DNA from: a virus
Taxonomy: Duplodnaviria > Caudoviricetes
Direction: 5' to 3' (one strand)
DNA length: 64,000 nucleotides
IMG/VR virus record: IMGVR_UViG_3300023170_000014
Coordinates: 1 to 64,000 of that record
Shown here: positions 3,942-26,803 of the stretch, piece after piece
Numbering within the stretch: position 1 is the first letter of the stretch
Layout of the letters: each line of letters begins with the position of its first letter
The notes under the pieces: generated by a model
Seen by the model: only the letters and a program-made list of their open reading frames with translations
What the model was told of the DNA's origin: nothing
Databases searched by the model: none
Position numbers and translations under genes: made by a program

Positions 3942-6900
3942 ATGGACCAAGAAGTTTATGATGTTGTTGAACGAATAAAAAATGAATTTAGTATAGATCT
4001 AGAGTCTTTAGTATCCGACTATGTTGGAAACTTTAACCCATCAATTAGAGAACCTGAAATTTGGAAATTTTTTAAATATTTTTTAAATTTTCCAGAAAAA
4101 GATGACCCCGAGTACGAAACTAAATTTTTAATTTCTTATAGAGAAATGATGAATTTTGATTATAATGCAATGACTTCTGATTTCCACGATTTAGTAGACA
4201 ATTGGGTTGAACAAAATTTAGGCCATTTTGAAGATAGTTTTTACAAAATTTATGATGAATATTCAAATATTAAACATATTGTAAGTTCAGAAGAAATTAA
4301 AAAATACCCTTCTGAAATTGATAATGCCATACAAGACTTAGTAACAAAATTCTGGGCAATTAAAGCAAAAAAAATGCTTGTTGATAAAGCAGATGAATTG
4401 TTTGAATATATCTTAACTCCAGAATATGTTAGCCAAAAATTAAAAGATGAATATAAAAAACATCATCTTGAAAAAGATAGAAATGTTCATCCAGATCAAG
4501 AGATGTTAGATATATATAATTTAAATAAATCAAACAAGTTAAGCGGTCATTTAGACCCAATTGCGTATATTACAAATGGCGGCGAATATCTTTGCCCTTC
4601 TTGTGCTGAAAAAGCGTATGGCTTAGATGAATCTGGTCGTTGGCCTCAACAACAACCAGATGGCTCTCCTAACCCAATTGCTCCGTGGGATGAATGGTAC
4701 AACTATCATGAAGATGATGCTCCATATCAAATGCTCACTTGTGTAGATTGTGGGGAAACAGTAGACGATTTCCTAAACGAATCTTCAGTTGATTGGGAAG
4801 ATGAATTTGGTGGGCTTGATGAAACTGAAATTGAGGCTAAAAAGAAATCTTACCGACAGGCTCAAAAAGATTTCTATAACCGCTGGACTCAAGAGAAACA
4901 CAATCAACAAAGACAACAAGAAATAAAAGATAAATGGGAACCGGCTAGTTGGTGGAAGGGGTCAAGTTCAGACACAGACCCATTAATAATTGCTGAAAAA
5001 TTTGCAGCAGCCTTTTTTAGAATCTCTTTAAGTGATTTTATTAATGAATATTATCAAAAGTCTTTTTTACGATATCACTCAGATGAAGCCGCAGCAGAAG
5101 AAACATTAAAATTTTTAGGATATGGAAACCCAGAATGGTTTAAACCATTTGACGACTTTATTAAATGGCATATAAACAATTTTGGAAATAAAAATATACC
5201 AAAAAATTCTCTTTTGAAATTTAAAAAAGATGCTTACGAAATAATCATAAATAAATTTCAAAGCATAATAGAAAATTACAGAATAAATATAAAAAAAAGA
5301 TTAAATAATTCAAATAAAAATATTTCTATTTCGCCTGAAGATATGAGTTCTGAAGAATATGATATACAAAATAATAAAAAACGTCAAAAAAATATTCAAG
5401 ACAAATGGGAGCCGCAAAGTTGGTGGAAAGGTTCTGCTCGCAACCCAGACATTCAAGAAAGAATCTGGTCTGAAACTTACGATGATGATGACGATTACGA
5501 CAGATTTTTTAATATAATGGAAAACGGCCAGTCGTTTGATTATTTTGTTCAAGAAATAAATAAAGTTATTGATCGTATGAACGAAGAAGAAAATGATGCT
5601 GTCAATTTAATTGAACGCAAAGATGTTGATTATCAAGAACTTTGGGATCAATGGGGATTCGAATACCAATCTGAGCAGCCAGAACCAGATGATATGGGTT
5701 ATATTCCTTCTAATCTCTATGACTTATATAACCCACTCCCAGAAAATATGGAAACTAATCTGGGGCCAGAGGCAACAGATAAGAACGAAGCCAGAAAGCA
5801 CCGTAAAAGAATTATTGACAAATGGGAACCAGCCGACTGGTGGAAGGGTTCTAAACGGAAAAGGGTTATTGCAGCCACCCCTGAATTAATTCAAGAGATG
5901 AAAGATAAGTTCTATGATCTTGAACAAGTTATAGTTGAAAGTTATGTGCAGCAGAAAAACAAAAGCATAACTGTTAACCCTACCAATCTACGGTACTGGG
6001 AAAAGGCCGATATTATTAGTGATTTGGTGACAGATAAAAGACTTCTTTCTAACGATCTTTTTTATCTTGAAGACGAAGTACATAATTTTGCCGATAGTTT
6101 TGTTAAACGATATAATATTAAAGATGAACAAGTAGTAAAAGAAAAGTTTATTGAAGCCGTCGAAGAAGAAATTTACGGAATTATTGATAGATATTCAAGG
6201 GATATCTATGATGCAATTTATGAAGATGCAAAAAGAGTGGGAAAAACAATTGCCTCCTACTTTATGGATTTTGACCCGGCTGAAGTAAAAAGTTGGCCGA
6301 TTGCGGCTAGACTGGACGAAATAAAAAATATCGAAGAAGGACATTCTAATCTTCTTGAATATGCAAATATGTGGGACTTTGATGAAGTTTATTCTTTTCA
6401 CAATGCCGCTGAAGTTCTTCAGGAAGCCAGTCTAAACAGCGGATACGATGATTGGAGCGAGGGGTTAGACGAAGGATTTCGGAGTAATATTAGTGTGCGA
6501 AAGATGGAAGACTCTTTGGGAGCAGACGCAAGACATTTGTATGAACCTGTTGACCCCTCACGAGAGCCGTACCTTGGCCCAGAAGAGACAGACGAAAATG
6601 AGGCCAAGAAACATCGCAGAGATATCGCTGACAAATGGAAGGTTGATTACGACCGATCAAAGGGAGACAGATTAAACTGGGCAACAGAAGAAGATTTCCC
6701 TAAAAAACCTTGGGACTTTACCTCTAAAACAAGTAGCCCTTTAGACTCACGCGACGAACACTACGTTATATTTAAAAATCAAGATGATTATGGGTCTGAC
6801 ATATGTAAAGATTGTGCCCAAAAGTATATGCAGTATCTAAAACCCGGAGATTATATTGACTTTGAAGGTGGTTCTTACCCCTCGTTATTTAAAGATGAAT

Positions 6901-9900
6901 ATCCCGATGAAGATGATTGGTGGAAGCAATGTGATGAATGTGGTAAAAATATAAACAAAAATTGGGAACCTACTGAAAAAGAAATTAAAAAAAGTTTACA
7001 TCCAATTCTTGATAGTATAAACGATCAACTTGCTAATCGCCAATATGATAAACAAGAATGGCTTTCATATTTTCCTTCCGCTATTCCTAAAATTCAAAAA
7101 GTTTTAAACGAATTAAAAAAATGGGTTGATAAATACCCAGAAGTTCAATTTATGGAAGATTGGTTTGGCAATAAAACAGATATCTTTGAATATTTTGAAA
7201 AAATTATAGAAACTGGTGCAAAAACTTCAGAAGAGTGGGATCGGCGTCAAGAAAAAGCCAACGAAGTACTTCATCAAGAAATTAACGAAGATGAACGTAA
7301 AAAGAAAACAGAAGAAGTAAAAGAAAAATGGGAACCCGAAGAATGGTGGAAAGGCTCTCATACTAAACAATCAAACGACAGAATAAATAATAATTTTTAT
7401 GATCCAGAAGAATATTTATTAGCAGAATATGCCAATCTTGCAGGAAAATCTCTTGGGTTAAATCCAAAAAATATAGCATACTGGGAAAGAGCGCAATTCC
7501 TTGGAATGTATGAAAGGCTAAAACAAAGCCTTATTGATGAAGCAGAAAGATATTTTTATAATACAGTCCCAGAAGAACTAAGAACTGAAGAAAACAGATG
7601 GGAATTTTTTGAGTATATTGAACAGTCTGTTCGGAATCTTGGAATAGAATATGCACAGATTATTGAAGAATCTGTTAATCAGGCAGGATATCAAGAGGGT
7701 AAATATTTTGCTGAATATGTAATGGATCTGTCTGAAAATTCTGTTAGGTACTGGTCTGTTAAAGATAGAATTGATTACTTAGAAAACCTTAAAGAAGGAA
7801 AGACTTCTTTAATAGAAGATCATATTTATGAATCTAATGCATACAATGAACTTCGTGCTGCAACAGGTTATATTGAAGAAGGAGAACCTAATCCCTATAT
7901 TCAAGATCCTTATTTTCTTATAGAAGAATTTTATCTTGACGTTGATGAAGGATTTTGGGAAAATATTGATGAAGAAAGGCTAAGAGCGGCATTCTCAGAG
8001 AGTGCAAATATCTCCGAATTATATAATCCTGTGCCAGAAAGTAGAGAACCCTATCTTGGCCCTGAAGCAACAGACGAAAATGAGGCTAAAAAACATCGCA
8101 GAAATATAGCCGATAAATGGAAAATCCAAACGGAACGCAAGCCGGGGCAAAAACTTGAGTGGGCTAGCGAAGACGACTTTCCTAAAAAAAGATGGGAGAG
8201 TAAGGTAGCATCTGATTACTCTACTCAAATTCAAAAAGAAATAGAAGAACTAGCAAAAGATGTTGCTCCATATCCCATAGATTATATGGATGCTTATAAA
8301 GATACCGCTTATTCTGATTTAGAATTTGTGCAAGACTCTACTTATAGAGATGCAATTTATGTTGCCGAAGATAGCATATCAGAAGCAATTTGGAGAGACA
8401 TTTATGATTATCTTGAAAGCCCTCAAAGCGGCGTTTCTCCAGAATTAAGAGAATTATATGATAATGATACAGATTTAATTTATGATATAGAAGATTTAGC
8501 AAGAGAGCATGTAGATTGGGAAGACACTAATAGATATTTTGCAAATCAGGCTATTGATGAAGTTAGAGGCGACATATTTCATTTTGTTAAAAAAATTCGC
8601 AATGATTTAACAAATTTAACAAATGATAAAATAATTTGGTTAGAAGAAGATATGCTTCTTGAAAGGTATCTTTCTTTCGAAATGAATAGTTTAGACTTTT
8701 TAGGATTCTTAGACGAAGCGCTTAATGGTTGGGATGATTTATCCGATCAACTTAACAAACTGATAAGTGTATATGAACCTATTAATAACTATGTGTATAA
8801 CGAGTTAAACAAATACGCTCAAGATTTATTAAATGATAGTAAAGTTTTAAGTTTATGGCCTACTGTAATAAACAACATTGAACGTTTTTATGACCCAGTA
8901 GACTCAGACGCCGAAGCCTATCTTGGTCCCAAAGAGACAGATGAGAACGAGGCTAAAAAGCATCGTAAGAAAATTAAAGATAAATGGAAGATTCAGACAT
9001 TGCGTGGATCTGATGAGCCTTTAAATTGGGCAACTGAAGAAGACTTTCCTAAAAAGCCTTGGGATTTTACTTCTAAATGGAAGATTGCAGGGGGATTTGA
9101 AGATTTATATACTCAATACTACAATCAATTAGAACAAAACGAAAATCAAACTAAGCAATTAATTGAAAAATATGCATTTGATGTTGTTTTAGAAGATCTT
9201 CCATCAATGGGAAGCGGTTTTACCGTTGAAAAATATCCAGATAGAATGGAAGTTGTTCCCAATCAATTAAAAATGGAACGGCTTCATGATTCGTGGATAG
9301 ACTTTACAAATCATCAAAAATTATTAGAATCACTATTCCCTGATTGGAAGAAAAGTTATTATTCTTTCAGCGAAACAAGAATTATAGCAATTGAAGAATT
9401 TATTAACAATAAAATGCCCGACTTGCTTCAAAAAATGGAAAGCATGTATAATTATATCTCTCAAGGGCGTTTAAGTGGAGAATCGGATGATGAGATTAGA
9501 GCAGGATATGAAAAACATTTTCAAACAAAAGTTTCTGCTATGCCCAATCAGTTCCTGCCTCGCCTTTATCATACAATGATAGAAAATCTTAAGAAAACTG
9601 CGACGTTTGATTGGGAATCTGAAGCAACTGTATTTGAAAAGGTTAAAGTTGCTTACGAAATATTATATAATTGGTATGATTATATTGATGAAATCAAAGA
9701 AGAAAGTGGTTACAATGGCCCAGCATATGATCTTGATTCATTTATCCAAGATGCATTTATTGATATTTTTACGCCAATATTTGAATCATTGATGTATATA
9801 GATGATGATGAAATACATAGTCAGTTTGAAATAATGCATAATAATGTTCGTCAAACTGCATTTGGCGGTCCTTATGCTATTAATAACGCTTTGTACGAAG

Positions 9901-12900
9901 TTTATACTGAAACTGGATACGAGTTAGACCATCAAGATCACCCCAAGTGGACTCCTTCTGATATTGTAGACTTTTATGAAAATAAACCAGAAAGAAATGA
10001 ACAAGAAGAAGAAGAGTTAAGAAGATATAAAAATCTTGACAAATGGGAACCTGAAAGTTGGTGGAAGGGTTCTAAAAGGAAGATTGTTGCAGCAGATGAG
10101 TGGGATGAAGAAGAAGAGGAAGAAGAGGAAAAAGATATTAGAGACTGGTCAGAAATTGACTGGATGATTCTTCAAGAAGTTCAAACTATAGATGGAGATT
10201 CGATTGTTACCTCTTTTCTTGAAGATTATGACTGGGAAGATATAGTTTTTGAGCAGTTAGTACCATTAGGTGTGTGGTCTGACGAGGCAATTTTTAAAAA
10301 ATATGTTAACTCCTTAGTTAATAATTCAAATCCTGAAGAAAATCTTGCAATAGAATGGGCAACAGAAGAGGCGGGACGTTGGTTTGAATATTTTGTAGAA
10401 ACAGCAATTGATTTTTATATAAATATTGAAGATCAGTTAACTACAGAAGAATATGAAGAACATTGGGCAGACATAGAAGATACTATAAGACAATATTTGT
10501 GGGATGAAGCACATGATTATACTGGAGAACTAGAAAGACGAGCAGAAATAGAAATAAACCATGTTTTAGGTGGTTATAACATTGCTGAAGCATTTTTTGA
10601 AAAATGGAAAGAGCAAAGACAGAGAGAGCAAAATGATCGTAACATTCACCCCGATCAAGAAATGATGGATCTTTATAACGTAAAGGGTGAGTTGCCCGAG
10701 CCAGAACCTGCTTCTCCAAGTCCACAAGTTGTTGATTGGATGAGGCAACAATCTAAAACTGCTTCTCAATATGAAAATTGGTCTACTCCAGAAACAGAAA
10801 TTTTAGTTGAACAAATATTATCGGACTCAAGAATATTGCGTCCTTCTATTAAGACAATGGAAAAGATTGTTCGTCAAGGTGGCTCTGTTCAAGACCTTGC
10901 TAATTGGATGATTGAAAATGTGCTTAATCCTTATAATCAAGGAATTGCTCAAAATTGGGAAAATATATCAGACGAACAAGATGTAGAAGCCCAAAAAAAT
11001 GAACTTAGAAAAACATGGAAACAGCAAGCAAGAAAACAGTTTCCGTTTAGTTTGCAAAAGCAAAAGCAATATGTTCAAGAGATGGAACAGATGCAATTTG
11101 GTTTCTTTGGAGAACCAGAGCCAGAAGATATTGAAAGATATTTACTTAAAGTAGAAAATATAAATTGGCAAGAAATTTATGACTGGGTAAAAGAAGATCT
11201 TCAATATCGTGGTAAGATCGCTTCTCATGACGACTATACTGACAGTACAAAACAAATTATAAATAAAATAATAGAAGAAGTTCCTGTTCTATTACCTCAA
11301 AGAGCCGGGTGGGAAGCCTCTAGAATTTTAAAAGCATGGATTGATAGATATAACACTGATAGATTAAATAAACATTACGATAAAGAAAAAAAAGTATGGT
11401 TGGACGATGATGGTGAGATAATTTCTCCTTTAAATACATATGAAGAAAAAATGATTCATTTTCATCAAACGGAAGAAAATCGTTTAATTAATAAAAATCA
11501 ATTAGGATTAGGAATTGAACAACTCAGAACTATGGCAGATAATGTTTTGAAAGATGAAGTTTATTGGGTTGGATCGTTTAAAACAGAACTTCAATGGCTT
11601 ATTCTGGATCGAATAGAATATTATATGTTAGAGTTAGGATATTTAGAAAAAAAGATTATATTAAAAGACATATTTGATATTACAAACACAAAAGAAAATG
11701 AATTAATTTATAATAATGCTTTTTATAAAGCGTGGGATGAGACATTTAAAGAAGAAACATCTTCAAAATTATCTAAATGGAAAATTATTTCATCTGACTG
11801 GGATGAAGAAGAGGCTCAAATAGACTTTTTGCTTAATGACCACGAAGATCAAGTAATTGAAGAGTCGGAAGACTTAAAATCTTCAAAAAATGCTTTAGTT
11901 GCTGATAATATTCGTTTTCAAGGTGTTGTTAATGGATTTCATAATGCACAAACAGCGTTAGCCAGAATTAATTATAATGAACTTAATAAATCAGACGATT
12001 ATGTTGAACCAGATAGACATTACAATCCAAACCAATTAGAATTATTTAGAGAGAGATTAAGAAATAATTTTGAACCAATAATTGTTGGAGAAGGCGTTCG
12101 TATTATAGTTAAAAATTATACTCATTTTTTTGAAAAAACAGATATTCCCAACGATGACTGGGAAAAATTCTGGGAAATACTAGAACAGAGTTATAAGGCT
12201 GGTTGGGAATATGGCATAGTTCACAACTACATAGATTTTAATAAACTTAATAATAAAGAAATAATTAATATTGCAAAGAAAACAAGTTCTCATGGGCAAA
12301 GACAAATGGCAATTGGAGATGAAGTTGCAGAAACAACCTTTGAAGGAATTCCAGATTCTATTGAAGAAGATGACAAGCCTGAAGAAAAAGTCATTAATAA
12401 TAAAAAATGGAAAATAGTTCGTCCTAAGCATAATCCACAACCAGCAGAATATGCAAGACCAAAGGGACAATGGGGTATGTATTCAAAAACCGCTATGTTT
12501 GAAAATAGTGAATTTACAGACTCTTTTGTTAGAGAAAAACTTATTCCTGCAAGAAAATCTCTCCCAGAAGTTACAAAAAAAGAAGCGATTAGAAAAGCAA
12601 AACAAATATGGGAACAATTTGAAAATCACCCATTTGGAAATGCAATTCCCGGAAGTAGTAATGAACAATTAAAATATCTTGTAGATGATATAGATCTATC
12701 TTCATCTGGGATAACTCAAGAAACTCTTAATAATCGTTTTTATGATCCAAACCAAGTTGACATTTTTAGAGAAAAAAGATTAAAACAACTTTTTGAAAAA
12801 GGAATTTCAATTGAAAAATTTTATATTTATTATCTTCTACAAATAGCAAAAGAAGCGTTGTGGAATCATCTTTTTAATAATACAATGCCTGTTTATGAAA

Positions 12901-13652
12901 TGGATCAAGCAGAAAAAGAATTGATGAATTCTTTATCAAATGATGATAAAAATAATCTTTATCTTATATTTAAAAATACTTATCACGAAGAGTTTAAAAG
13001 ATTATTTAATGGTAACAAAACTTCAGCAAATAAAAAAGACGCATGGGAAGCCGTTCTTGATGGAGAGATGGGCCACGATATCCTCACTACTGGAAGTTGG
13101 GAAGAAGTAAAAAAACAAACCCTCAAGTGGCTTAAACAACTTAAAGACGGATATATAAATAAAGAAAATCCTCATGATAATGAAAAGATTGATTCCGAAG
13201 CAAAAGAGCAAGACGGGCATGCAATGGAAGATCTAAAACTTTACGAAGAAAAGAAGCGCTGGTCATTCCACTTTGATCATGGCAAGCATCCATATGATCT
13301 TATCATTCAGCCTGTTGGATATAAAGAATCAAATAATAATTGGAGACACGGAGACTGCGACCTTTTTGCAATAAAAAAACATCAAGAAACAGGCTGGCCG
13401 ATCTATAAAATTGCTGAAGGGCCAAATGACGGGGCGTGGCACTTTTTCTTAATTAATCCCGAAACTGGAGAAGGATTAGATGGAGATGGTCTTAGACCTG
13501 TAGAAGAAATACTTCAAGAACACGATCCAGACTTTAATCCTGAATACGAAGAACTAGGAATTTACCCTGATGTTTTTGAATCTTCGCTAAAAGAAGCAAT
13601 AAATTACAGAAAAGGATATAAAGAATCTAAATTAAAAGAAATATGTGTATAG
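3942..13652 (+). CDS. giant acidic modular protein (putative virion polyprotein / polyvalent protein)
   Basis: 3236 aa open frame; ~20 modules separated by K-x-A/S linkers; repeated peptide tags; two double-CxxC modules; C-terminal Cys-His-Asp module. Confidence 0.85.
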   Translation: MDQEVYDVVERIKNEFSIDLESLVSDYVGNFNPSIREPEIWKFFKYFLNFPEKDDPEYETKFLISYREMMNFDYNAMTSDFHDLVDNWVEQNLGHFEDSFYKIYDEYSNIKHIVSSEEIKKYPSEIDNAIQDLVTKFWAIKAKKMLVDKADELFEYILTPEYVSQKLKDEYKKHHLEKDRNVHPDQEMLDIYNLNKSNKLSGHLDPIAYITNGGEYLCPSCAEKAYGLDESGRWPQQQPDGSPNPIAPWDEWYNYHEDDAPYQMLTCVDCGETVDDFLNESSVDWEDEFGGLDETEIEAKKKSYRQAQKDFYNRWTQEKHNQQRQQEIKDKWEPASWWKGSSSDTDPLIIAEKFAAAFFRISLSDFINEYYQKSFLRYHSDEAAAEETLKFLGYGNPEWFKPFDDFIKWHINNFGNKNIPKNSLLKFKKDAYEIIINKFQSIIENYRINIKKRLNNSNKNISISPEDMSSEEYDIQNNKKRQKNIQDKWEPQSWWKGSARNPDIQERIWSETYDDDDDYDRFFNIMENGQSFDYFVQEINKVIDRMNEEENDAVNLIERKDVDYQELWDQWGFEYQSEQPEPDDMGYIPSNLYDLYNPLPENMETNLGPEATDKNEARKHRKRIIDKWEPADWWKGSKRKRVIAATPELIQEMKDKFYDLEQVIVESYVQQKNKSITVNPTNLRYWEKADIISDLVTDKRLLSNDLFYLEDEVHNFADSFVKRYNIKDEQVVKEKFIEAVEEEIYGIIDRYSRDIYDAIYEDAKRVGKTIASYFMDFDPAEVKSWPIAARLDEIKNIEEGHSNLLEYANMWDFDEVYSFHNAAEVLQEASLNSGYDDWSEGLDEGFRSNISVRKMEDSLGADARHLYEPVDPSREPYLGPEETDENEAKKHRRDIADKWKVDYDRSKGDRLNWATEEDFPKKPWDFTSKTSSPLDSRDEHYVIFKNQDDYGSDICKDCAQKYMQYLKPGDYIDFEGGSYPSLFKDEYPDEDDWWKQCDECGKNINKNWEPTEKEIKKSLHPILDSINDQLANRQYDKQEWLSYFPSAIPKIQKVLNELKKWVDKYPEVQFMEDWFGNKTDIFEYFEKIIETGAKTSEEWDRRQEKANEVLHQEINEDERKKKTEEVKEKWEPEEWWKGSHTKQSNDRINNNFYDPEEYLLAEYANLAGKSLGLNPKNIAYWERAQFLGMYERLKQSLIDEAERYFYNTVPEELRTEENRWEFFEYIEQSVRNLGIEYAQIIEESVNQAGYQEGKYFAEYVMDLSENSVRYWSVKDRIDYLENLKEGKTSLIEDHIYESNAYNELRAATGYIEEGEPNPYIQDPYFLIEEFYLDVDEGFWENIDEERLRAAFSESANISELYNPVPESREPYLGPEATDENEAKKHRRNIADKWKIQTERKPGQKLEWASEDDFPKKRWESKVASDYSTQIQKEIEELAKDVAPYPIDYMDAYKDTAYSDLEFVQDSTYRDAIYVAEDSISEAIWRDIYDYLESPQSGVSPELRELYDNDTDLIYDIEDLAREHVDWEDTNRYFANQAIDEVRGDIFHFVKKIRNDLTNLTNDKIIWLEEDMLLERYLSFEMNSLDFLGFLDEALNGWDDLSDQLNKLISVYEPINNYVYNELNKYAQDLLNDSKVLSLWPTVINNIERFYDPVDSDAEAYLGPKETDENEAKKHRKKIKDKWKIQTLRGSDEPLNWATEEDFPKKPWDFTSKWKIAGGFEDLYTQYYNQLEQNENQTKQLIEKYAFDVVLEDLPSMGSGFTVEKYPDRMEVVPNQLKMERLHDSWIDFTNHQKLLESLFPDWKKSYYSFSETRIIAIEEFINNKMPDLLQKMESMYNYISQGRLSGESDDEIRAGYEKHFQTKVSAMPNQFLPRLYHTMIENLKKTATFDWESEATVFEKVKVAYEILYNWYDYIDEIKEESGYNGPAYDLDSFIQDAFIDIFTPIFESLMYIDDDEIHSQFEIMHNNVRQTAFGGPYAINNALYEVYTETGYELDHQDHPKWTPSDIVDFYENKPERNEQEEEELRRYKNLDKWEPESWWKGSKRKIVAADEWDEEEEEEEEKDIRDWSEIDWMILQEVQTIDGDSIVTSFLEDYDWEDIVFEQLVPLGVWSDEAIFKKYVNSLVNNSNPEENLAIEWATEEAGRWFEYFVETAIDFYINIEDQLTTEEYEEHWADIEDTIRQYLWDEAHDYTGELERRAEIEINHVLGGYNIAEAFFEKWKEQRQREQNDRNIHPDQEMMDLYNVKGELPEPEPASPSPQVVDWMRQQSKTASQYENWSTPETEILVEQILSDSRILRPSIKTMEKIVRQGGSVQDLANWMIENVLNPYNQGIAQNWENISDEQDVEAQKNELRKTWKQQARKQFPFSLQKQKQYVQEMEQMQFGFFGEPEPEDIERYLLKVENINWQEIYDWVKEDLQYRGKIASHDDYTDSTKQIINKIIEEVPVLLPQRAGWEASRILKAWIDRYNTDRLNKHYDKEKKVWLDDDGEIISPLNTYEEKMIHFHQTEENRLINKNQLGLGIEQLRTMADNVLKDEVYWVGSFKTELQWLILDRIEYYMLELGYLEKKIILKDIFDITNTKENELIYNNAFYKAWDETFKEETSSKLSKWKIISSDWDEEEAQIDFLLNDHEDQVIEESEDLKSSKNALVADNIRFQGVVNGFHNAQTALARINYNELNKSDDYVEPDRHYNPNQLELFRERLRNNFEPIIVGEGVRIIVKNYTHFFEKTDIPNDDWEKFWEILEQSYKAGWEYGIVHNYIDFNKLNNKEIINIAKKTSSHGQRQMAIGDEVAETTFEGIPDSIEEDDKPEEKVINNKKWKIVRPKHNPQPAEYARPKGQWGMYSKTAMFENSEFTDSFVREKLIPARKSLPEVTKKEAIRKAKQIWEQFENHPFGNAIPGSSNEQLKYLVDDIDLSSSGITQETLNNRFYDPNQVDIFREKRLKQLFEKGISIEKFYIYYLLQIAKEALWNHLFNNTMPVYEMDQAEKELMNSLSNDDKNNLYLIFKNTYHEEFKRLFNGNKTSANKKDAWEAVLDGEMGHDILTTGSWEEVKKQTLKWLKQLKDGYINKENPHDNEKIDSEAKEQDGHAMEDLKLYEEKKRWSFHFDHGKHPYDLIIQPVGYKESNNNWRHGDCDLFAIKKHQETGWPIYKIAEGPNDGAWHFFLINPETGEGLDGDGLRPVEEILQEHDPDFNPEYEELGIYPDVFESSLKEAINYRKGYKESKLKEICV
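4929..10073 (+). repeat. dispersed DKWEPxxWWKGS peptide repeat (copies 4929, 5400, 5817, 7323, 10038; sixth at 63894)
   Basis: 36 nt units conserved at protein level with synonymous variation. Confidence 0.9.
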
Positions 13653-16600
13653 CGAAGTTTTAATAATAGAATAGAAAGATTGGATAATTATGAAAGTTGA
13701 TTTTCAAAACATAGAAGAAGGACAAAATGGTAAACTATTTGCGGTCTTAGAAGAAGACCAACTTCCGGTAGGTCAATTGTTTTATAAAGTTGATAATAAT
13801 AATAAAAATCTTATTGTAGATTATATCTATATTCCTCGTAAGTATTGGCGCGAAGGTGGAATTAGAGAACAACTTATTGCTGAACTTCAGAGTATGTATC
13901 CTGCCTATTCTTTTTCTATGAAACAAAATCAAAAACAATCTTATCTTTTAAAAGAAGCGCCCGCTCGTAGTAAAGCCCAATTTAGATATATGCAAGGTAT
14001 TTGTAATGGCTCTATTGAGCCTCCAAAGGGGATGACTCGCGCTAAGGCTTGTGAATACGTTGAAGGACAAAAAAATTATAAAAGTTTGCCGGATAAAAAA
14101 TCAGCGCGCCCATCAATCCGCGACACAAAAGGTTCTGAGTTTTTAAGAGATATTATCGCTGAATACGTTGGGGGAGAAAGCGTAGCATCACTTGCAAAAA
14201 AATATAATGTTTCTACAAATGCAATTAAAAATTATTTACAAGAAAACAATATTCCTTCTAGAAGTCTTAAGGAGCATAGGCTTCATCCAAAAACAAAAAA
14301 ACAAACGCCGCCAATTCGGGAGCGTGTTCCAAACAGAAAACAAAAAAAACTTCTTGTACCCAAAAAACAAAGACCAGATACTCTTCCTAATTTTAAATTT
14401 AAAACAGATCATGATTTATTAATAGATGAACTCCCTCAAGAATTACAAGACGAAATTAATGAAAGAAAGAAATTAGAAGAAAGTGGAGAAGTCCCATTTA
14501 TTCCTCAAATGAATTGGGCAAGCCCCTATTCTGGCGACTATGTACCTTCTGCATCAGAAATACTTGGCGATAAAAAAATGAAACCTAAAGAAAAATATAG
14601 AAGTGAAAAAATTGCAAAGTCTACTCTTCATAAAAATGTTCATACAGGGAAACCATGCACTTGTGGTTTTTATAGACCAGAACAAAAACAATCTAAGTGG
14701 AAACAAGTAACCGCATCTAAACTAGATAAGATTATTAAAGACGATCCTAAAGTGCTTAGAACAGAAGAGGGGCAAAAGGTTCTTGACTGGATGAAAGGTC
14801 TTCCCGAAAAAGTTGATGACTTTCTGCCTTGGATTGTAAGAGAATATAAAAAGAAAAGATTAGAACCTTCAATGGTTGGAGAAGGCGAAGATGCTTTTGT
14901 GGAACTGATGCAAACTACTCCCATTGAAGGAACTGAATTTAGAGGATTTTTAGACGAAGCAACTCTTTCTCATTGGGCAGATTGGTATGGAAGTAATTCT
15001 CCTACTCGTCGTGGCGTTAACATCATGGAATTTTCAGTAAAAGATATTTTTGATAAAATCCAAGAATGGGACTTAGAACTTCTGTCTCAAGGAGTTTCTT
15101 TAGATGAAGAAAAGAAAAAAGACGAAAAAATTATTTATGAGTGGCCCGATGGATGGTTTATAAGGGATCTTTCACCAGAAGAGTGTGATTATGAAGGTCA
15201 AACTATGCAACACTGTGTTCGTCGTCAAGGATATGGAGACAGAATAGAACAAGGTCTAATAAAAATTGTTTCTTTAAGAAGTCCAAATAATAAACCTCAC
15301 GCTACTTTAGAAATAAATAAAGACGGCTCTATTCAACAAATTCAAGGAAAACAAAACCTTCACCCTCTTGCAAAATATAGAAAAAGAATTCGTCAATTTA
15401 TGACAGATCCCAACGGGTTTGAACGACTTTTTAATAAAAAACCGACTCTTCCCGGGGGTCGCAATATAACCGAATGGCAAGAGTTTAGAAATATGGATGG
15501 AGAGTCTAACTATGATCCAAGTATGATTGCTATTGATGAAGAAGAAGAATTTGATTCAAAATATGACGAAAATATGAGGCGACACCCTTACGCCGGTCCC
15601 GGGGGGTTTGATAGAAACTATAGACCAGAGCATTATGGAATCTATCCGCCAGAAGCAAGCCCAGATAAGCCTGTTGATATGGCAAGATTATTAACCTCTT
15701 TGCCAGAAGATATCTCTCAAGAAGATCTTCAAAAACTATTAGATTATGCAAGAAGAACGGGCCAAGTAGATCAACTTGCTAAAATAATGCAAAGTCAACA
15801 AACAAGAAATCAAGACTTATTGATAATTCCTAGTTTTGAAGATCAACGCCGTGGGGGATGGAGAGATGCTTTTGAAAAGATGACTATGACAAATCCAAAT
15901 GATCCTAATTATAAAGAAAAATGGAACGAGTGGCTATCCTCTATTTGGAGCGAAGATCCTAAACAATTGGCAAAAAATCTTGTTGAAGTTAATAAAATAA
16001 ATCAAAATTGGGGGGAATCAGGATCTGAAGATGAAAGTCGTGCAACAAGTATTCTTAAAATTATAAACAAATATAATTCAATGAATCAATTGCGTTCAAT
16101 GTTTAATCCAGAAGAAGACGAATTATTAAATTGGTCTGAGTTTGATGAAACAGACTTTTCAGATTATCGTCAAAGATTTGAACGAGGTTTACATAAGGGA
16201 GAAGGTATTTCACAATTGCCCACTAGAGTTGATGAGCAACAACTTTCACTTCTGTCTAAGTGGAGAAGGACTTCTAAATGGAAAAAGACTTCAGTTGATA
16301 ATTGGGATGATATTGAAAACGAAGAACACGAAGAACACACTCAAGAAGAGGCTAAATGGGAAGGTCAAGCCGCAGCCATGTATAATTTGTCAATAGTTCC
16401 TAATTTTATGCAATCTCAAAGCATTTCTAGTTATGGCGGCCTTTACCGCGAAGTGGGTGCTGCTAGTAAAACTCAAGATTTTTATGATAATTTTATAGAC
16501 CGCGCCTCAGAATATTTAATAGACATATTTGCAGGATCTGAAGAAAGTTGGGTTCTTGATGAGGAATACCAAGATTCTTTTTATGATGGTTTTTGGGAAG

Positions 16601-17142
16601 AAACTAATAAAAATTGGCAAAATTATATAGAAGCACTCAAATATGACATTAAAAAGAATTTACAAGATGAACCTATATATGAGGCAATAATAAAAGACTG
16701 GCCGTGGCAAGAAGAAGGAGCAATTGAAAGTTTTCAAAATACAATAGAAAAAACTAAAGAATTGGGATTAGGACATTTACTTTGGATTTTTGAACGTTAT
16801 TATTCTGAAATTTATGATAAAGCAGAATTGATGTATGCAAATGATCCTAACTTTGCATGGATAAAAGGAGAACTAGATAAACAAATTCGTGAAGTTATTA
16901 ACAACGCTGACGAAATAATTGCACAAGGGTTAGGCGCTTCAAATCCAGATTACAGTGCTGATATGTCTAAATGGTATGCTGAACCTGTTTCAAAAAGAGA
17001 AGAAGAATGGCTTGGGCCTGAAGAAACTGATCAAAATGAAGCAAGAAAGCATCGTAAAAACATTAGAGATAAGTGGAAAGTGCAGCCGGGTAAAAAACTT
17101 GAATGGGCAACTGAAGAAGATTTTCCTAAGAAAAGATGGGAA
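5727..17142 (+). repeat. dispersed ~60 aa YxP..LGPEETDENEAKKHR..IxDKWK..LxWATEEDFPKKxW repeat (6540, 8022, 8889, 16974; hybrid copy 5727)
   Basis: directly visible in the translations of the 3236 aa and 1151 aa ORFs. Confidence 0.9.
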
Positions 17143-17145
17143 TAA
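13690..17145 (+). CDS. modular (polyvalent) protein: GNAT-like, HTH and PcfJ-like domains plus shared C-terminal tag
   Basis: VGQLFY..LIVDYIYIPRKYWREGG (GNAT-like); GESVASLAKKYNVSTNAIKNYL (HTH); EGQTMQHCV..IVSLRSPNNKPHATLEI..QIQGKQN (PcfJ-like). Confidence 0.8.
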   Translation: MKVDFQNIEEGQNGKLFAVLEEDQLPVGQLFYKVDNNNKNLIVDYIYIPRKYWREGGIREQLIAELQSMYPAYSFSMKQNQKQSYLLKEAPARSKAQFRYMQGICNGSIEPPKGMTRAKACEYVEGQKNYKSLPDKKSARPSIRDTKGSEFLRDIIAEYVGGESVASLAKKYNVSTNAIKNYLQENNIPSRSLKEHRLHPKTKKQTPPIRERVPNRKQKKLLVPKKQRPDTLPNFKFKTDHDLLIDELPQELQDEINERKKLEESGEVPFIPQMNWASPYSGDYVPSASEILGDKKMKPKEKYRSEKIAKSTLHKNVHTGKPCTCGFYRPEQKQSKWKQVTASKLDKIIKDDPKVLRTEEGQKVLDWMKGLPEKVDDFLPWIVREYKKKRLEPSMVGEGEDAFVELMQTTPIEGTEFRGFLDEATLSHWADWYGSNSPTRRGVNIMEFSVKDIFDKIQEWDLELLSQGVSLDEEKKKDEKIIYEWPDGWFIRDLSPEECDYEGQTMQHCVRRQGYGDRIEQGLIKIVSLRSPNNKPHATLEINKDGSIQQIQGKQNLHPLAKYRKRIRQFMTDPNGFERLFNKKPTLPGGRNITEWQEFRNMDGESNYDPSMIAIDEEEEFDSKYDENMRRHPYAGPGGFDRNYRPEHYGIYPPEASPDKPVDMARLLTSLPEDISQEDLQKLLDYARRTGQVDQLAKIMQSQQTRNQDLLIIPSFEDQRRGGWRDAFEKMTMTNPNDPNYKEKWNEWLSSIWSEDPKQLAKNLVEVNKINQNWGESGSEDESRATSILKIINKYNSMNQLRSMFNPEEDELLNWSEFDETDFSDYRQRFERGLHKGEGISQLPTRVDEQQLSLLSKWRRTSKWKKTSVDNWDDIENEEHEEHTQEEAKWEGQAAAMYNLSIVPNFMQSQSISSYGGLYREVGAASKTQDFYDNFIDRASEYLIDIFAGSEESWVLDEEYQDSFYDGFWEETNKNWQNYIEALKYDIKKNLQDEPIYEAIIKDWPWQEEGAIESFQNTIEKTKELGLGHLLWIFERYYSEIYDKAELMYANDPNFAWIKGELDKQIREVINNADEIIAQGLGASNPDYSADMSKWYAEPVSKREEEWLGPEETDQNEARKHRKNIRDKWKVQPGKKLEWATEEDFPKKRWE

Positions 17146-18437
17146 TGAAAAAGCGATCCTATTTTGAAGAATTTAATGTTGAGCATGGATCAGATAATGT
17201 CAGTGAATATTTCTTAATAAAAGACGAAGATCAAATTATTGGTTCTGTTTACTATGCCCCTGTACCTAACGGCGACGGAACTGCAATTTTTTATTTGGGA
17301 TATGGCGACAAACTTCATCCTTATGAAAATACAAAAGAAATAGAAGAACTTAAAAGTAAATATCCTCGTCTTAGTGTAGAAATTTTTAAATGGATAAGAA
17401 AAAACTTGCCGCAACCTTACTATGCTGCATTTGCAAATGAAGAATTAAAAAGAGCATTAAGAGCAGAGCCTACTGGAATGAGAAGTGTTGATATAACAAC
17501 AGGAGAGCCAGTAGATATTCATATCATACGTCGTTCTAGTGAAAGGTTTATTATGAGTAGTAATGAAAAAGTTGATAGAGTAAAAGAAGCACTTAAAGAA
17601 AAAGATGATGAAGAATACAACAATGCAATGATTGATCTTTGGGAAAGTATTTCTCCGGGAATGGGTAAGCAATATATAGAAAAATATCATAGCCCCCCAA
17701 AAAGTGAAAAAGAATTAAAAGAGTGGGCAAATGAAGAATTAAAAAAAGCAGATCCTACGGGTACTAAAACAATGGATAAACCTGAACAAAGAAAAAAGAA
17801 ATCATCTGTTGACTTAACTCCCCCAGAGGGCGTTCGTGCTGCTGCTCGTAGAGGTATTAAATATCATTCTGAAGGAAAAGCGGGTAAAGGCTTTGAATCT
17901 GCGACTCTCACTCGCGCTCGCAAGATTGCAGAAGGAAAAGAATTAACCCCAGAGCATGTTAAGCGTATGCACTCTTTCTTTGAAAGACACGCTGGAGGTC
18001 GCTCAGAAAAGGCTGGCAAAGGCGAAGTTACACCTTGGGATGTTGCTTGGCTGGCTTGGGGCGGGAATGCAGGAAGATCTTGGGCTGCATCTAAAGTTAA
18101 AGAAATGGAAAGAAGTAAAGAATCTTCTAAGAAAAAACGGGGTTTTATGTTTAGCCCACAAAGAATTAAAGACGCTGTTGATAATAAAAATTTTAAAGAA
18201 GCCGAAAGGCTTTTAGAAGAATATAGGATGACGCTAGATGGTAGCAGAAATCCAAAAGAAATTAATGCTGTGTTAAAATCAATTAAAAACTTAAAAGAAT
18301 ATATTCAAAGAAACAAAGAGGCAAAGAGTAAATGTAATTGTTGGGATGGGTATAAAAGAGTGCCCGGAACAAAGCCTTGCGCTCCCGGCTCTTGTGAAAA
18401 ATGTGATAACCACAGAAAAAAGAAAAAGAAATCATAA
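17145..18437 (+). CDS. modular head-associated protein
   Basis: TAATG coupling; PPEGVRAAARRG..RMHSFFERH..VAWLAWGGNAGRSWA domain and CWDGYKRVPGTKPC motif seen in phage head proteins; K-x-S linkers. Confidence 0.7.
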   Translation: MKKRSYFEEFNVEHGSDNVSEYFLIKDEDQIIGSVYYAPVPNGDGTAIFYLGYGDKLHPYENTKEIEELKSKYPRLSVEIFKWIRKNLPQPYYAAFANEELKRALRAEPTGMRSVDITTGEPVDIHIIRRSSERFIMSSNEKVDRVKEALKEKDDEEYNNAMIDLWESISPGMGKQYIEKYHSPPKSEKELKEWANEELKKADPTGTKTMDKPEQRKKKSSVDLTPPEGVRAAARRGIKYHSEGKAGKGFESATLTRARKIAEGKELTPEHVKRMHSFFERHAGGRSEKAGKGEVTPWDVAWLAWGGNAGRSWAASKVKEMERSKESSKKKRGFMFSPQRIKDAVDNKNFKEAERLLEEYRMTLDGSRNPKEINAVLKSIKNLKEYIQRNKEAKSKCNCWDGYKRVPGTKPCAPGSCEKCDNHRKKKKKS

Positions 18438-21571: not shown

Positions 21572-22198
21572 ATGTACAAAACTGCAATTGCTCACGTTGA
21601 AGGTGAACTTTCATACGATGAGGCTCTAAATAATTTTAAAACTGCTTATCCAACATACGATGTTAGAGCAGTTAAGCAATCTAATTATGGTTGGATTGCC
21701 TTTATTCAAAAAGAAGCATATCAAGATCAAAATGTTCAAGATGGCGTTCCTGCTGAAATGGATGAACTTTCAAGTCCCGGCGCTGATTCTGAAATGCTAG
21801 AAGTTGAAATTGGCGAAGGTCCAAAAGAAACTTATGGCGAAGAAGAAGAAAAGCAAGAAGGGCTTATGGAAAAACTAGAAGAGGCTCTTGATGAAGTAGA
21901 GCGTCTAGTTTCTGAAATTAAAGATTCTGAAGAAGATGAAGAAGAGGTTAGACCATTTGACACTCCAGAAGAGATGGATGACGAATTGGATCTAGAAGAA
22001 GATGTTGAAGAGATGGAAGGTATTGAAAAAGAAATGCCTCTTACCATCGCAAGAGAAAAAGAAGCCGGTGTAACTCTAAAAACTGCCTCTAGAGAAGTAG
22101 AACAACTAATTAGAAGAGAAAGAGAATTTAGAGGATACAAATTAGCAGGAATTGAAGAAAAGAAAAATAGTTTTGTTGCAAAACTTGTTAAGAAGTAA
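21572..22198 (+). CDS. acidic head morphogenesis protein
   Basis: AAGGAG RBS; Glu-rich; several KTA/KEA/KQS/KLA motifs; precedes the protease gene. Confidence 0.65.
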   Translation: MYKTAIAHVEGELSYDEALNNFKTAYPTYDVRAVKQSNYGWIAFIQKEAYQDQNVQDGVPAEMDELSSPGADSEMLEVEIGEGPKETYGEEEEKQEGLMEKLEEALDEVERLVSEIKDSEEDEEEVRPFDTPEEMDDELDLEEDVEEMEGIEKEMPLTIAREKEAGVTLKTASREVEQLIRREREFRGYKLAGIEEKKNSFVAKLVKK

Positions 22199-25275: not shown

Positions 25276-25824
25276 ATGCTTCGAATTCAAAATATTTCAG
25301 CAGCAAATCAGCAACGTACCCTCCGCGCTTTGTATGCACAAACTCAAGCGTATCCATACGCCGCAGTTCTGTCATCAAGCACTTACGGTACTGCTGGTAC
25401 TGCTACCGGAGACTTTTCAAAAGGCTCTGGAACTGCACCCGGAACTCTTGGTAACGGGCCAATCTTCCCCGGCATGGTAGCCGCACTCGCCCCCGCTGGC
25501 GAAGTTGTGTGTGTATCAGTCGGTGGAACTGCCCTTTCACCATTCGGGCTATTTGGTAACTTTATCGGTGGAGAATTTGACGAAGTTGGAGACTTTACCG
25601 AAGTCGGTGTTTGGCGCGGTCCAGCAGCCGTGTTTGAAGTGCTTTCACCAGCATTTAACTCAAACATTACTGCTGCCGATGAAGACACTGATGCAAATCG
25701 TAAACTATATGCTGACGCTAACGGTCTTCTCAACGACACAGAAGTAGATTCTGGCCCTGCCGTTGCAAGACTTATTGACTATGTAAGTGCTAGCAAGATC
25801 GTAATCGAACTGTTGAGTGTCTAA
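25276..25824 (+). CDS. capsid decoration/cement protein
   Basis: AGGAGG RBS; lies between scaffold and MCP; IFPGMVAA..PFGLFGNF..VGVW pattern; high-expression codon usage. Confidence 0.7.
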   Translation: MLRIQNISAANQQRTLRALYAQTQAYPYAAVLSSSTYGTAGTATGDFSKGSGTAPGTLGNGPIFPGMVAALAPAGEVVCVSVGGTALSPFGLFGNFIGGEFDEVGDFTEVGVWRGPAAVFEVLSPAFNSNITAADEDTDANRKLYADANGLLNDTEVDSGPAVARLIDYVSASKIVIELLSV

Positions 25825-25837
25825 GGAGAGTATGATA

Positions 25838-26803
25838 ATGGATGAAGCAAGACAGGCAATTAACAGCAGTGACTACGTTCAAAAACTTGCTGGTATGCCA
25901 AAATTAACAAATGAACAAAAGAAAGCAAAACTACAGACCATTCTTTCAGACAAATCAAACGCTATGAAGCGTCTTGGTGTCGCTATGATTGGTCCAATTC
26001 AAATTCGTCTTCGCTACGAAGGTATTGTTCGTAACGTGCTTGTAGAAGACACCTTGGAAAAGGGTCCACTCTTGCCTTACGACGTTCTTGATGACTTTGG
26101 ACAGGCTTATATTCTTAACCAGACTGACTCAGAAATCAAGATCACTCCCTTCGAAGGTAAGCAGGTTTACCCAAGACTCTTCAGAGTCGCCGCGTTCCCT
26201 CGCGTTCGCAAGGAAGACCTGTACTACCTCCGCGTAAACGCAATTGAATATGCCCAAGATGAATGTCGTCAGGCTATTCAGCGTCAAGAAGACTCACGCC
26301 TCTTGACCTTGCTTGACACCGCTGTAACTGACTGGGCTGCCAAGGAACCAAACCGCTATGCAGGTTCTGGTGGTACTGGTTCAACCACCAAGTCAATTGG
26401 TGCTGGAAACCCACTAGAAGTTGTTGACTTCTACGACCTAGTTGCTAACCTAGAGCAGCGTCAAATCGAAACCAAGCGTATTCTTATGAATCCTGCTGAC
26501 GTTCGTGACCTCTACTCATGGGACATTAACGTAACTGGTTGGCAATTCAAGGACACCGTATTCGGTGGTGGCATGATTACTGAGTTTGGTGAGTTCACCA
26601 TTCAGAAGTCAATCATGATTTCACCCGGTAACGTATACCTAGTCCCAGACCCCAACTTCTTGGGTGTCATGCCCGTCATGTACTCACTTGACGTTGAAGA
26701 GAACAACCAAGTTGAACAATTCTACCGTGGATGGGTAATGGATGAGTTGATCGGAATGCTTATCCTCAACCCCAGAGGTCTTGCCAAGATTGTCAAGGCT
26801 TAA
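25838..26803 (+). CDS. major capsid protein (HK97 fold, mycobacteriophage Bxz1-like)
   Basis: RLGVAMIGPIQIRLRYEGIVRNVLVED..YDVLDD..FPRVRKEDLY..AIQRQEDSRL..PVMYSLDVEE..GWVMDELIGMLILNPRGL; AAGGAG RBS favours ATG 25832/25838. Confidence 0.92.
   Translation: MDEARQAINSSDYVQKLAGMPKLTNEQKKAKLQTILSDKSNAMKRLGVAMIGPIQIRLRYEGIVRNVLVEDTLEKGPLLPYDVLDDFGQAYILNQTDSEIKITPFEGKQVYPRLFRVAAFPRVRKEDLYYLRVNAIEYAQDECRQAIQRQEDSRLLTLLDTAVTDWAAKEPNRYAGSGGTGSTTKSIGAGNPLEVVDFYDLVANLEQRQIETKRILMNPADVRDLYSWDINVTGWQFKDTVFGGGMITEFGEFTIQKSIMISPGNVYLVPDPNFLGVMPVMYSLDVEENNQVEQFYRGWVMDELIGMLILNPRGLAKIVKA

Follow-up and report, generated by a model that had tools for sequence, protein, structure and literature searches.

Polyvalent proteins of phages and conjugative elements carry many domains on a single polypeptide and, according to the accessible part of the study describing them, have been proposed to travel with the DNA (PMC5512222) and to be processed by a peptidase, including an assemblin-like peptidase or a metallopeptidase (Iyer et al. 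2017, PMC5512222). The subject of the present analysis is a giant open reading frame (ORF) at positions 3942-13652 of a Caudoviricetes record, IMGVR_UViG_3300023170_000014. The stretch analysed (referred to as the window) is the first 64 kb of this 76,390-base viral contig, whose completeness is estimated at ~48% (CheckV). The encoded protein is divided into small modules by recurring short peptides (referred to as joints), and the explanation best supported by sequence comparison is that it is probably a cleavable polyprotein of head cargo.

In T4, the internal proteins and Alt carry a capsid-targeting sequence, are cut after Glu (L/I-x-E) by the gp21 prohead protease and are then injected. 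Head maturation in phiKZ and SPN3US also cuts after Glu. Herpesvirus assemblin has maturation and release sites of the form (V/L)-x-A-S, cut between Ala and Ser, near the end of the protease and the C-terminus of the scaffold, and RNA-virus polyproteins are single translation products cut at repeated short motifs by a virus-encoded protease. In the phiKZ-like phage SPN3US, one prohead protease (gp245) cuts many head and ejection proteins, as well as itself, at a short motif; the accessible part of that study gives 14 mapped sites in nine substrates, mostly serving the removal of N-terminal propeptides, with long propeptides cut several times (PMC10052503).

Joints, linkers and modules of the giant protein

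The giant protein is very acidic, as originally predicted, with 3236 aa, an isoelectric point (pI) of 4.61 and 672 Asp and Glu residues against 392 Lys and Arg. Cutting it in silico at the joints gives 18 modules, so that the modular build proposed earlier stands while its count of ~20 is corrected; 17 of the 18 have a pI of 4.1-6.1 and one has a pI of 9.1. All 17 linkers named in the original prediction were found where it had placed them, exactly or within a few bases. The family consensus of the joint is S-K-(W-K-x)-[TVIE]-[AS]-[SAG], and comparison of the giant protein with itself revealed longer repeated elements in front of many joints: a short linker, [DE]KWEPxxWWKGS, in five copies, and a linker of ~60 residues, LYxPV...LGPEETDENEAKKHRKxIxDKWK...L-WATEEDFPKKxW, in three copies and one hybrid. 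The features are given below together with clusters of ends of BLAST high-scoring segment pairs (HSPs), which mark where similarity to relatives starts or stops.

3942-13652, + strand: giant gene of the putative polyprotein, 3236 aa, ATG start, 18 modules of 68-293 aa
4533-4547, + strand: joint NKLSG at the border of modules 1 and 2; HSP-end cluster at aa 197
4929-4964, + strand: short linker DKWEPASWWKGS, closing module 2, from self-comparison
5400-5435, + strand: short linker DKWEPQSWWKGS, closing module 3, from self-comparison
5724-5876, + strand: hybrid long/short linker (LYNPLP...LGPEATDKNEARKHRKRIIDKWEPADWWKGS), then joint SKRKRVIAA from 5850
6537-6737, + strand: long linker (LYEPVD...DKWKV...LNWATEEDFPKKPWDFT), then joint SKTSS from 6723; 10 HSP ends at aa 929
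7323-7373, + strand: short linker EKWEPEEWWKGS, then joint HTKQS from 7359
8019-8213, + strand: long linker, then joint SKVAS from 8199; HSP-end cluster at aa 1420
8886-9092, + strand: long linker, then canonical joint SKWKIAG from 9072; 11 HSP ends at aa 1714
9525-9539, + strand: joint TKVSA; HSP-end cluster at aa 1860
9591-9605, + strand: motif match KKTAT, ~20 aa inside module 10; no HSP-end cluster
10038-10094, + strand: short linker DKWEPESWWKGS, then joint SKRKIVAA from 10071; relatives have SKWKKVSA
10752-10766, + strand: joint SKTAS; HSP-end cluster at aa 2273
11211-11225, + strand: joint GKIAS; cluster of 11 HSP ends at aa 2430
11772-11795, + strand: canonical joint SKWKIISS; HSP-end cluster at aa 2609
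12276-12290, + strand: joint KKTSS; HSP-end cluster at aa 2782
12291-12494, + strand: module 15, 68 aa, ending in joint SKTA(M); common to 9 of 10 compared relatives
From 12483, + strand: joint SKTAM, end of module 15
13014-13028, + strand: joint NKTSA; P0010 has SKWKKTKK at the same position
13029-13331, + strand: module 17, more conserved in the family than any other, with YKES at its end; 92% identical to P0010
13320 and 13617, + strand: joints YKES (twice), ends of modules 17 and 18
13332-13628, + strand: module 18, with the second YKES at its end; P0029, P0031 and P0037 are free-standing homologues

Two generalisations about the linkers had to be narrowed. They had been said to fall always at module borders, which holds for most joints and probably fails for KKTAT at 9591. 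They had also been described as basic, which applies chiefly to the KRK and KWK forms, the local charge around joints being only -1 to +4.

A word-indexed search of 5.8 billion proteins yielded 9 relatives of 1950-2678 residues, and an exhaustive HMMER search with aa 2272-3236 as the query found, among 1.84 billion cluster representatives, only 29 proteins at E <= 0.001, so the family is rare. The full joint of the relatives is S-K-W-K-[IK]-[VAIS]-[SAG] and the short form S-K-x-[AS]-[SAG]; their borders read S-K-W-K-[KIVR]-[IVK]-[SA], and at orthologous borders these alternate with the short form of the giant protein. At the NKLSG border, for example, P0006 has SKWKRVSA and P0009 SNWKVSG, and P0002 has SKWKRVIAA where the giant protein has SKRKRVIAA. 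A logo of 91 distinct sites, in which S, K and W were fixed by the site-selection pattern, reads K(-2) [EQ] S K W K [IK] [VAIS] [SAG] and continues with acidic residues, with Lys at position -2 in 54 of the 91, and the short form occurs 55 times across 20 relatives against 14.6 expected.

Chance expectations for motif counts in the giant protein were taken from 2000 shuffles of the whole protein. The three-residue K-x-A/S motif originally proposed is too loose alone, whereas a four-residue version, K-[TVIL]-[AS]-[ASGM], is strongly enriched, with 10 sites against 0.9-0.97 expected. K.[AS][ASG] is found 12 times (3.9 expected) and KWK seven times (0.7 expected), and each of these three counts was reached by 0 of the 2000 shuffles. 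A six-frame scan of the window placed 9 of 12 matches to KW[KN][KIVRM] in the giant gene, the gene at 13690-17145 and the one from 62841 onward; among 623 stop-to-stop ORFs of at least 60 aa in a related 129,640-base record, there are 11 matches to [SNT]KW[KNR], and 8 of them are in the giant gene.

Comparison of the giant protein with 10 relatives gave 121 HSP ends, 42% of which lie within 15 aa of 10 strict sites; random placement puts 9% there, and none of 5000 placements reached 42%. With a wider set of 16 sites the values are 53% and 14%. The original prediction had staked itself in advance on the motif being more frequent at domain borders than expected by chance, as the strict sites are. 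A joint is no more than 9 residues away from 12 of the 17 clusters of at least 3 HSP ends; of the other five, three are at the start of a long linker, one is at a YKES joint and one is 24 residues from NKTSA.

Several modules also exist outside the chain. Free-standing proteins of 98-176 residues match module 12 (of the DUF7249 type by homology search), module 17 (P0025, P0035 and P0036) and module 18, and the matches to modules 17 and 18 start or stop within a few residues of the joints. Conversely, modules of the separate gene at 17136-18437 are fused inside the polyproteins P0009 and P0021. Judged from these comparisons, the modules are autonomous units. Module 15 is unmatched in P0011, the protein of a neighbouring gene and the tenth compared. 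N-terminal modules differ between relatives, and no N-terminal capsid-targeting tag was identified in the giant protein, although no formal search was made. Its first 3000 residues gave no tblastn match in 50,697 phage records, among which no cultured phage has a homologue of this part.

Structure prediction module by module had been proposed and was run with AlphaFold2 (AF2) on two stretches, giving confident models of modules 17 and 18 and no significant structural match. For aa 2781-3236 (15 sequences), these two modules were modelled at a predicted local distance difference test (pLDDT) of 70-95 (85-95 for module 17, 70-92 for module 18), and pLDDT falls below 50 at the NKTSA joint (aa 3013-3029) and the YKES joint (aa 3130-3136). 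The model of aa 1426-1862 is a helical bundle, then a single helix spanning the basic portion of the long linker, then coil through SKWKIAG at a pLDDT of ~30. The underlying alignments are shallow, and low pLDDT is therefore weak evidence of disorder. A fold search of the aa 2781-3236 model against PDB and BFVD gave nothing at E <= 0.001, the best viral hits being small uncharacterised phage proteins, not significant; in the ESM Atlas, module 17 reached a best score of 0.78 with unnamed clusters. PDB sequence and profile searches with the protease described below and modules 15-18 returned nothing meaningful.

At the DNA level, TCT encodes the Ser of SKWK at 17 of 20 sites, the remaining three having TCA (two sites) and an Asn codon (one site) (3942-17145, L002 and L017-L023 of the related record G001), while TCT makes up 45% of Ser codons in the SKWK-bearing ORFs; the Lys codons at these sites vary (AAA:AAG 11:6). 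Internal translation starts at the joints were considered and rejected, with one ATG and no GTG or TTG after the 20 sites and too short a spacing of the Shine-Dalgarno-like GGA.

A second recurring motif, [DN]R-x-Y-x-P-[DN]-Q-[LV]-x-[LI]-F, is present at 12027-12065 and 12747-12785, and also at 4491 and 10650. Examples are RHYNPNQLELFRE and RFYDPNQVDIFRE, and relatives have DRFYNPDQLSLFRE. A simple pattern for it occurs 14 times in 21 family proteins against 5.2 expected, many of the copies being homologous to one another, and it resembles the bacterial sliding-clamp-binding peptide QL[SD]LF.

A motif shared with the prohead protease and head proteins

The four-residue motif recurs in the head genes of the same phage:

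22471-25218, + strand: prohead protease-scaffold fusion, 915 aa; phrog_18299, E 1.1e-24
21572-22198, + strand: head-region protein, acidic, 208 aa; [KR]-[LIV]-A-[GS] site conserved near the C-terminus
25817-26803, + strand: major capsid protein (MCP); phrog_2522, E 6e-97; ARQA and QKLAG in the N-arm

The product of 22471-25218 is assigned to the prohead serine proteases by its family match, by His197 and Ser268, which are invariant in 6 orthologues, and by the MCP gene two genes downstream; a long scaffold-like tail follows the protease domain. This domain ends in FDPAD (aa 327), followed by SHTKTAM, and VKESS is located 19 aa short of the C-terminus. Searches of PDB by sequence and by profile gave no match for the protein. 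An insertion of ~70 residues precedes the catalytic core (window 22700-22970, aa ~85-165) and is absent in the close relatives L002 and L004 as well as in L009 and L011.

K[TVIL][AS][ASGM] occurs twice in the 21572 protein (0.09 expected), four times in the protease-scaffold protein (0.79 expected) and once in the N-arm of the MCP, which is not significant alone. It is absent from the sheath, the baseplate and most tail genes, and the other listed genes, mainly tail and baseplate (26910-54804), hold five sites in total against ~4 expected. The earlier claim that the motif recurs in head proteins is upheld, and the giant protein, like cargo of the T4 internal protein and Alt type, shares its motif with the head proteins of its own phage. 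In the 21572 protein, [KR]-[LIV]-A-[GS] is kept at one aligned column even in a relative that is only 18% identical.

Protease-scaffold fusions are expected to free themselves after the protease domain and before the C-terminal tail of the scaffold. When 120 orthologues were scanned for [KR]-x-[AS]-[ASTGM], a site was present within 30 residues after FDPAD in 80 of them (16.6 expected), and in the last 50 residues of all 70 that have a complete ...[AL][IL]F tail (17.7 expected), with the consensus K-[TE]-A-S. Sites in the last 50 aa extend to Myrna gp97 and ScoobyDoobyDoo gp90. In Myrna, gp96 and gp97 are enriched in the motif; the portal, the capsid protein, gp102, gp112, gp114 and gp117 are not.

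In 24 of the 120 orthologues, cargo-type modules are fused directly behind the protease domain. These match the 13690-17145 protein in its N-terminal module, ORF 17136 and ORF 62841, the last of which has a DUF7249-type module; in P0085, P0091, P0123 and P0140 the same two or three modules are permuted between KEAS, KTAS, KKSS and KISM joints, and P0063 and P0067 have, behind the protease, the long linker and joints of the form W-S-K-[TV]-A. The protease-scaffold works inside the prohead, and these fusions are therefore the best argument for regarding the modules as head cargo and the protease as the enzyme that reads the joint. Complex prediction for the protease domain with 41 aa around SKWKIAG scored 0.00 in both runs, which were made without controls, and speaks neither for nor against this.

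Myrna gp97 (L013 11743-15378), noted as 'tape measure' in its record, is a homologue of the prohead protease-scaffold, as indicated by its FDPAD core, its ...SLMFG tail and its position two genes upstream of the capsid gene; the ScoobyDoobyDoo homologue is annotated as hypothetical. Myrna gp96, encoded just upstream of the protease-scaffold gene, carries a SWIM-like Cys/His pattern. The MCP of the window is ~55% identical to capsid proteins of cluster C Mycobacterium phages (55% for the Myrna MCP), which are of high G+C although the DNA of the window has a G+C content of only ~33-36%. Relatives of the protease range from 39 to 59% G+C (loci L002-L012), and the head module is therefore common to very different hosts.

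By its gene content, the source phage is a myovirus: the contig encodes a tail sheath (phrog_2839, E 1.3e-81) and a baseplate wedge protein. The giant ORF shares its strand (+) with the head and tail genes. Three further genes use the same linkers or modules:

13690-17145, + strand: second putative polyprotein gene, 1151 aa, with joints QSKWKQVTAS and TSKWKKTSV
17136-18437, + strand: 433-aa gene, whose modules occur inside polyprotein P0009 and in protease-scaffold proteins of relatives
62841-64000, continuing to contig position 64412, + strand: gene with linker DKWEPESWWKGSKWNKIS and a DUF7249-type module, the third gene sharing the linker

The giant gene and the next two form ~14.5 kb of consecutive cargo-type coding with one shared joint grammar. 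The 1151-aa protein matches PcfJ (PF14284) at E 8.8e-11 and DUF3849 weakly, and it terminates immediately behind a long linker (...FPKKRWE). Domains of relatives and neighbouring genes include ParB_N, PcfJ, DUF3849, DUF5661 and GNAT, along with one HExxH module, the latter only in P0010 among 10 relatives and likewise lacking in the protease-scaffold protein.

Three genes end in Trp/Lys-containing peptides: ...SNWKVLKWNRI (62841 to contig position 64412), ...KNKWKRI (contig 68345-70327) and ...SKSKWRII (contig 72289-73164), and their orthologues P0030, P0033 and P0019 end in SKWKIRRR, SKWKVSK and SKWKIC. The second of these genes is a fusion of a tRNA nucleotidyltransferase (phrog_2244, E 1.4e-71) with a SWIM zinc-finger module, which are separate genes in G001. 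The conserved letters at its end include the ribosome-binding site and start codon of the next gene, and a function of the C-terminal ...KWKRI as a protein tag was downgraded on this ground, since a constraint on the RNA may equally account for it.

Proposed processing and competing explanations

The following route would account for these observations. Eighteen small autonomous proteins, mostly acidic and mostly helical in the two modelled stretches, would be translated as one chain, each border carrying a joint S-K-(W-K-x)-[TVIE]-[AS]-[SAG] that is often preceded by a Trp/Lys-rich linker (DKWEPxSWWKGS or the ~60-aa LGPEETDENEAKKHRKxIxDKWK...WATEEDFPKKxW). The chain would be co-assembled into the prohead, where the prohead serine protease of the phage (22471-25218) would cut at or just after the small residues of the joints. 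Other capsid proteases have P3-x-P1 cleavage motifs, and by analogy the scissile bond is placed after the [AS] of the joint. The same type of site would let the protease leave the scaffold part and the scaffold leave its C-terminal tail. The freed modules would be retained in the head and pass into the host together with the DNA; a role as DNA mimics or anti-defence factors is compatible with their acidity. The claim of a cleavable, packaged polyprotein draws partial support from the joints at borders (42% against 9% of HSP ends) and the motif shared with head proteins.

More broadly, this phage clade may use a portable cargo grammar, in which any small protein flanked by the joint (W...S-K-(W-K-x)-[TVIE]-[AS]-small), whether in a giant chain or directly behind the protease, would be loaded, released and injected. 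This is plausible, if somewhat short of probable. Fused and unfused states of a module would be interchangeable because the protease would erase the difference, and the giant gene would be an evolvable magazine of early-acting proteins.

Several observations weigh against a cleavable head cargo. The loose K.[AS] occurs 39 times in the giant protein against 27.6 +/- 4.8 expected, a count reached by 29 of the 2000 shuffles. The shuffles also lose the local composition of linkers rich in Ser, Thr, Ala and Lys, and the enrichment of so short a motif is therefore overstated somewhat, to a degree that is unquantified. Pfam, searched up to an E of 0.01, assigns no protease family to the 22471 protein. 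The contig lacks the portal gene, which in one relative is ~28 kb away from the giant gene. No Pfam, PHROG or NCBIfam family reached threshold in the giant protein, so that the term 'effector' rests on relatives with ParB_N, PcfJ or GNAT. Its net charge of -280 would suit a scaffold that is expelled, and the T4 internal proteins are basic, unlike this protein. The TCT bias hints that SKWK joints spread as copied DNA, and the ...KWKRI gene ends, because they overlap the ribosome-binding region of the next gene, are weak evidence for a protein tag.

In one competing proposal, the giant protein is a sacrificial core or scaffold, loaded and cut at the joints, whose acidic pieces are expelled before or during DNA packaging without delivery; this differs from the delivered cargo only in the retention and delivery steps. 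The giant protein is very acidic, as scaffolds are, and has its motif in common with the scaffold, and an enzymatic domain is lacking in searches of Pfam, PHROG and NCBIfam, but a separate scaffold region is already present in 22471-25218, and a module content that varies so highly among relatives, including ParB_N, PcfJ, GNAT and HExxH, is unlike a structural core, which makes this decidedly unlikely. That the chain is never cut, and remains as beads on a string with the joints conserved as tethers, for example through Lys-Trp-Lys contacts with packaged DNA or the inner capsid wall, is also unlikely. Trp/Lys-rich linkers within an acidic chain would suit such a role, and N4 vRNAP is an example of a giant virion protein known to be delivered whole, according to the accessible part of PMC5512222. 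Against it, the K-x-[AS]-small motif sits at the expected self-processing places of the protease-scaffold orthologues, and modules that are also free-standing and swap between fused and separate states are easier to understand if the fusion is not kept in the mature products.

The codon bias instead invites the view that the joints are fusion scars, derived from gene ends and starts and kept as shared DNA for module swaps with no role as peptides. The coincidence of module-exchange breakpoints with joints, the preference for TCT, the three genes ending in ...KW[KNR]xI just before the next start and the conservation of one such end as DNA together with that start all fit. Yet the Lys codons vary, the flanking residues follow a peptide logo rather than a fixed DNA word, in-frame starts do not follow the joints (one ATG among 20 sites), and the KWK-less short form keeps its positions in the protease-scaffold, where exchange plays no part; this view is very unlikely. 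It is highly improbable, finally, that a different protease, of the host or another phage enzyme, cuts the joints outside the capsid. P0010 does carry an HExxH of its own, in line with the metallopeptidase processing proposed in the accessible part of PMC5512222, but the motif is absent from the giant protein, for which a self-encoded metalloprotease was rejected on this ground, and from 10 of 11 others scanned (9 of 10 relatives and the protease-scaffold protein), and the joint motif is specifically common to the prohead protease-scaffold family.

If the joints are cut as in the cargo polyprotein favoured here, this would be a dsDNA-phage polyprotein on an unusual scale, in which a single gene yields 18 products, and adjacent genes spanning ~14.5 kb would share a grammar that amounts to a simple sequence rule for head-loaded proteins. 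How large phages choose and load their ejection proteins, an open question, would become approachable, as would the roles of many 'dark' small phage proteins in the first minutes of infection and the use of the joint as a means of loading chosen proteins into capsids. The motif reaches cultured cluster C phages of Mycobacterium smegmatis (Myrna gp96 and gp97), and the specificity of the protease can thus be checked without culturing the source phage.

Comparison with known systems

Titles and abstracts on polyvalent proteins, polyproteins, head proteases and cleavage motifs contained no description of the SKWK joint, and a literature search for virion proteomics of cluster C gave nothing relevant. 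Among the systems introduced above, RNA-virus polyproteins answer a constraint of eukaryotic translation that is absent in a dsDNA phage, so that the likely benefit here would be co-loading into the capsid. As in herpesvirus assemblin, protease and scaffold are fused and a motif, here K-x-A-S, is conserved at the same two places, but Lys replaces Val or Leu three residues before the presumed cut, and a fold in common with assemblin would be putative. The likeness to the T4 internal proteins and Alt would lie in loaded cargo trimmed at a short motif that head proteins also use. The T4 proteins each have one N-terminal tag and are cut after Glu, whereas here up to 17 internal joints lie in one chain, the presumed P3 and P1 residues are Lys and Ala or Ser, and the protein is acidic rather than basic. 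In contrast to the gp245 system of SPN3US, as described in the accessible part of PMC10052503, a polyprotein of shuffled autonomous modules is found only here.

By the module repertoire of the relatives and neighbouring genes, which fits their set, polyvalent proteins are the closest described class. Many unrelated modules share one phage polypeptide in both cases, with ParB_N, PcfJ, DUF3849 and GNAT in relatives or the neighbouring gene, and the giant protein has the several distinct domains of that class (2-15 or more) in its 18 modules, set by joints and homology breakpoints. Recognisable disparate activities were not detected in it with Pfam, PHROG and NCBIfam, nor was a processing peptidase of its own in the form of an HExxH motif. 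It also differs in that one joint motif stands at every border, where the accessible part of PMC5512222 describes no recurring junction peptide, and in that this joint is held in common with the protease-scaffold, while the giant protein itself is without a recognised enzymatic domain or peptidase.

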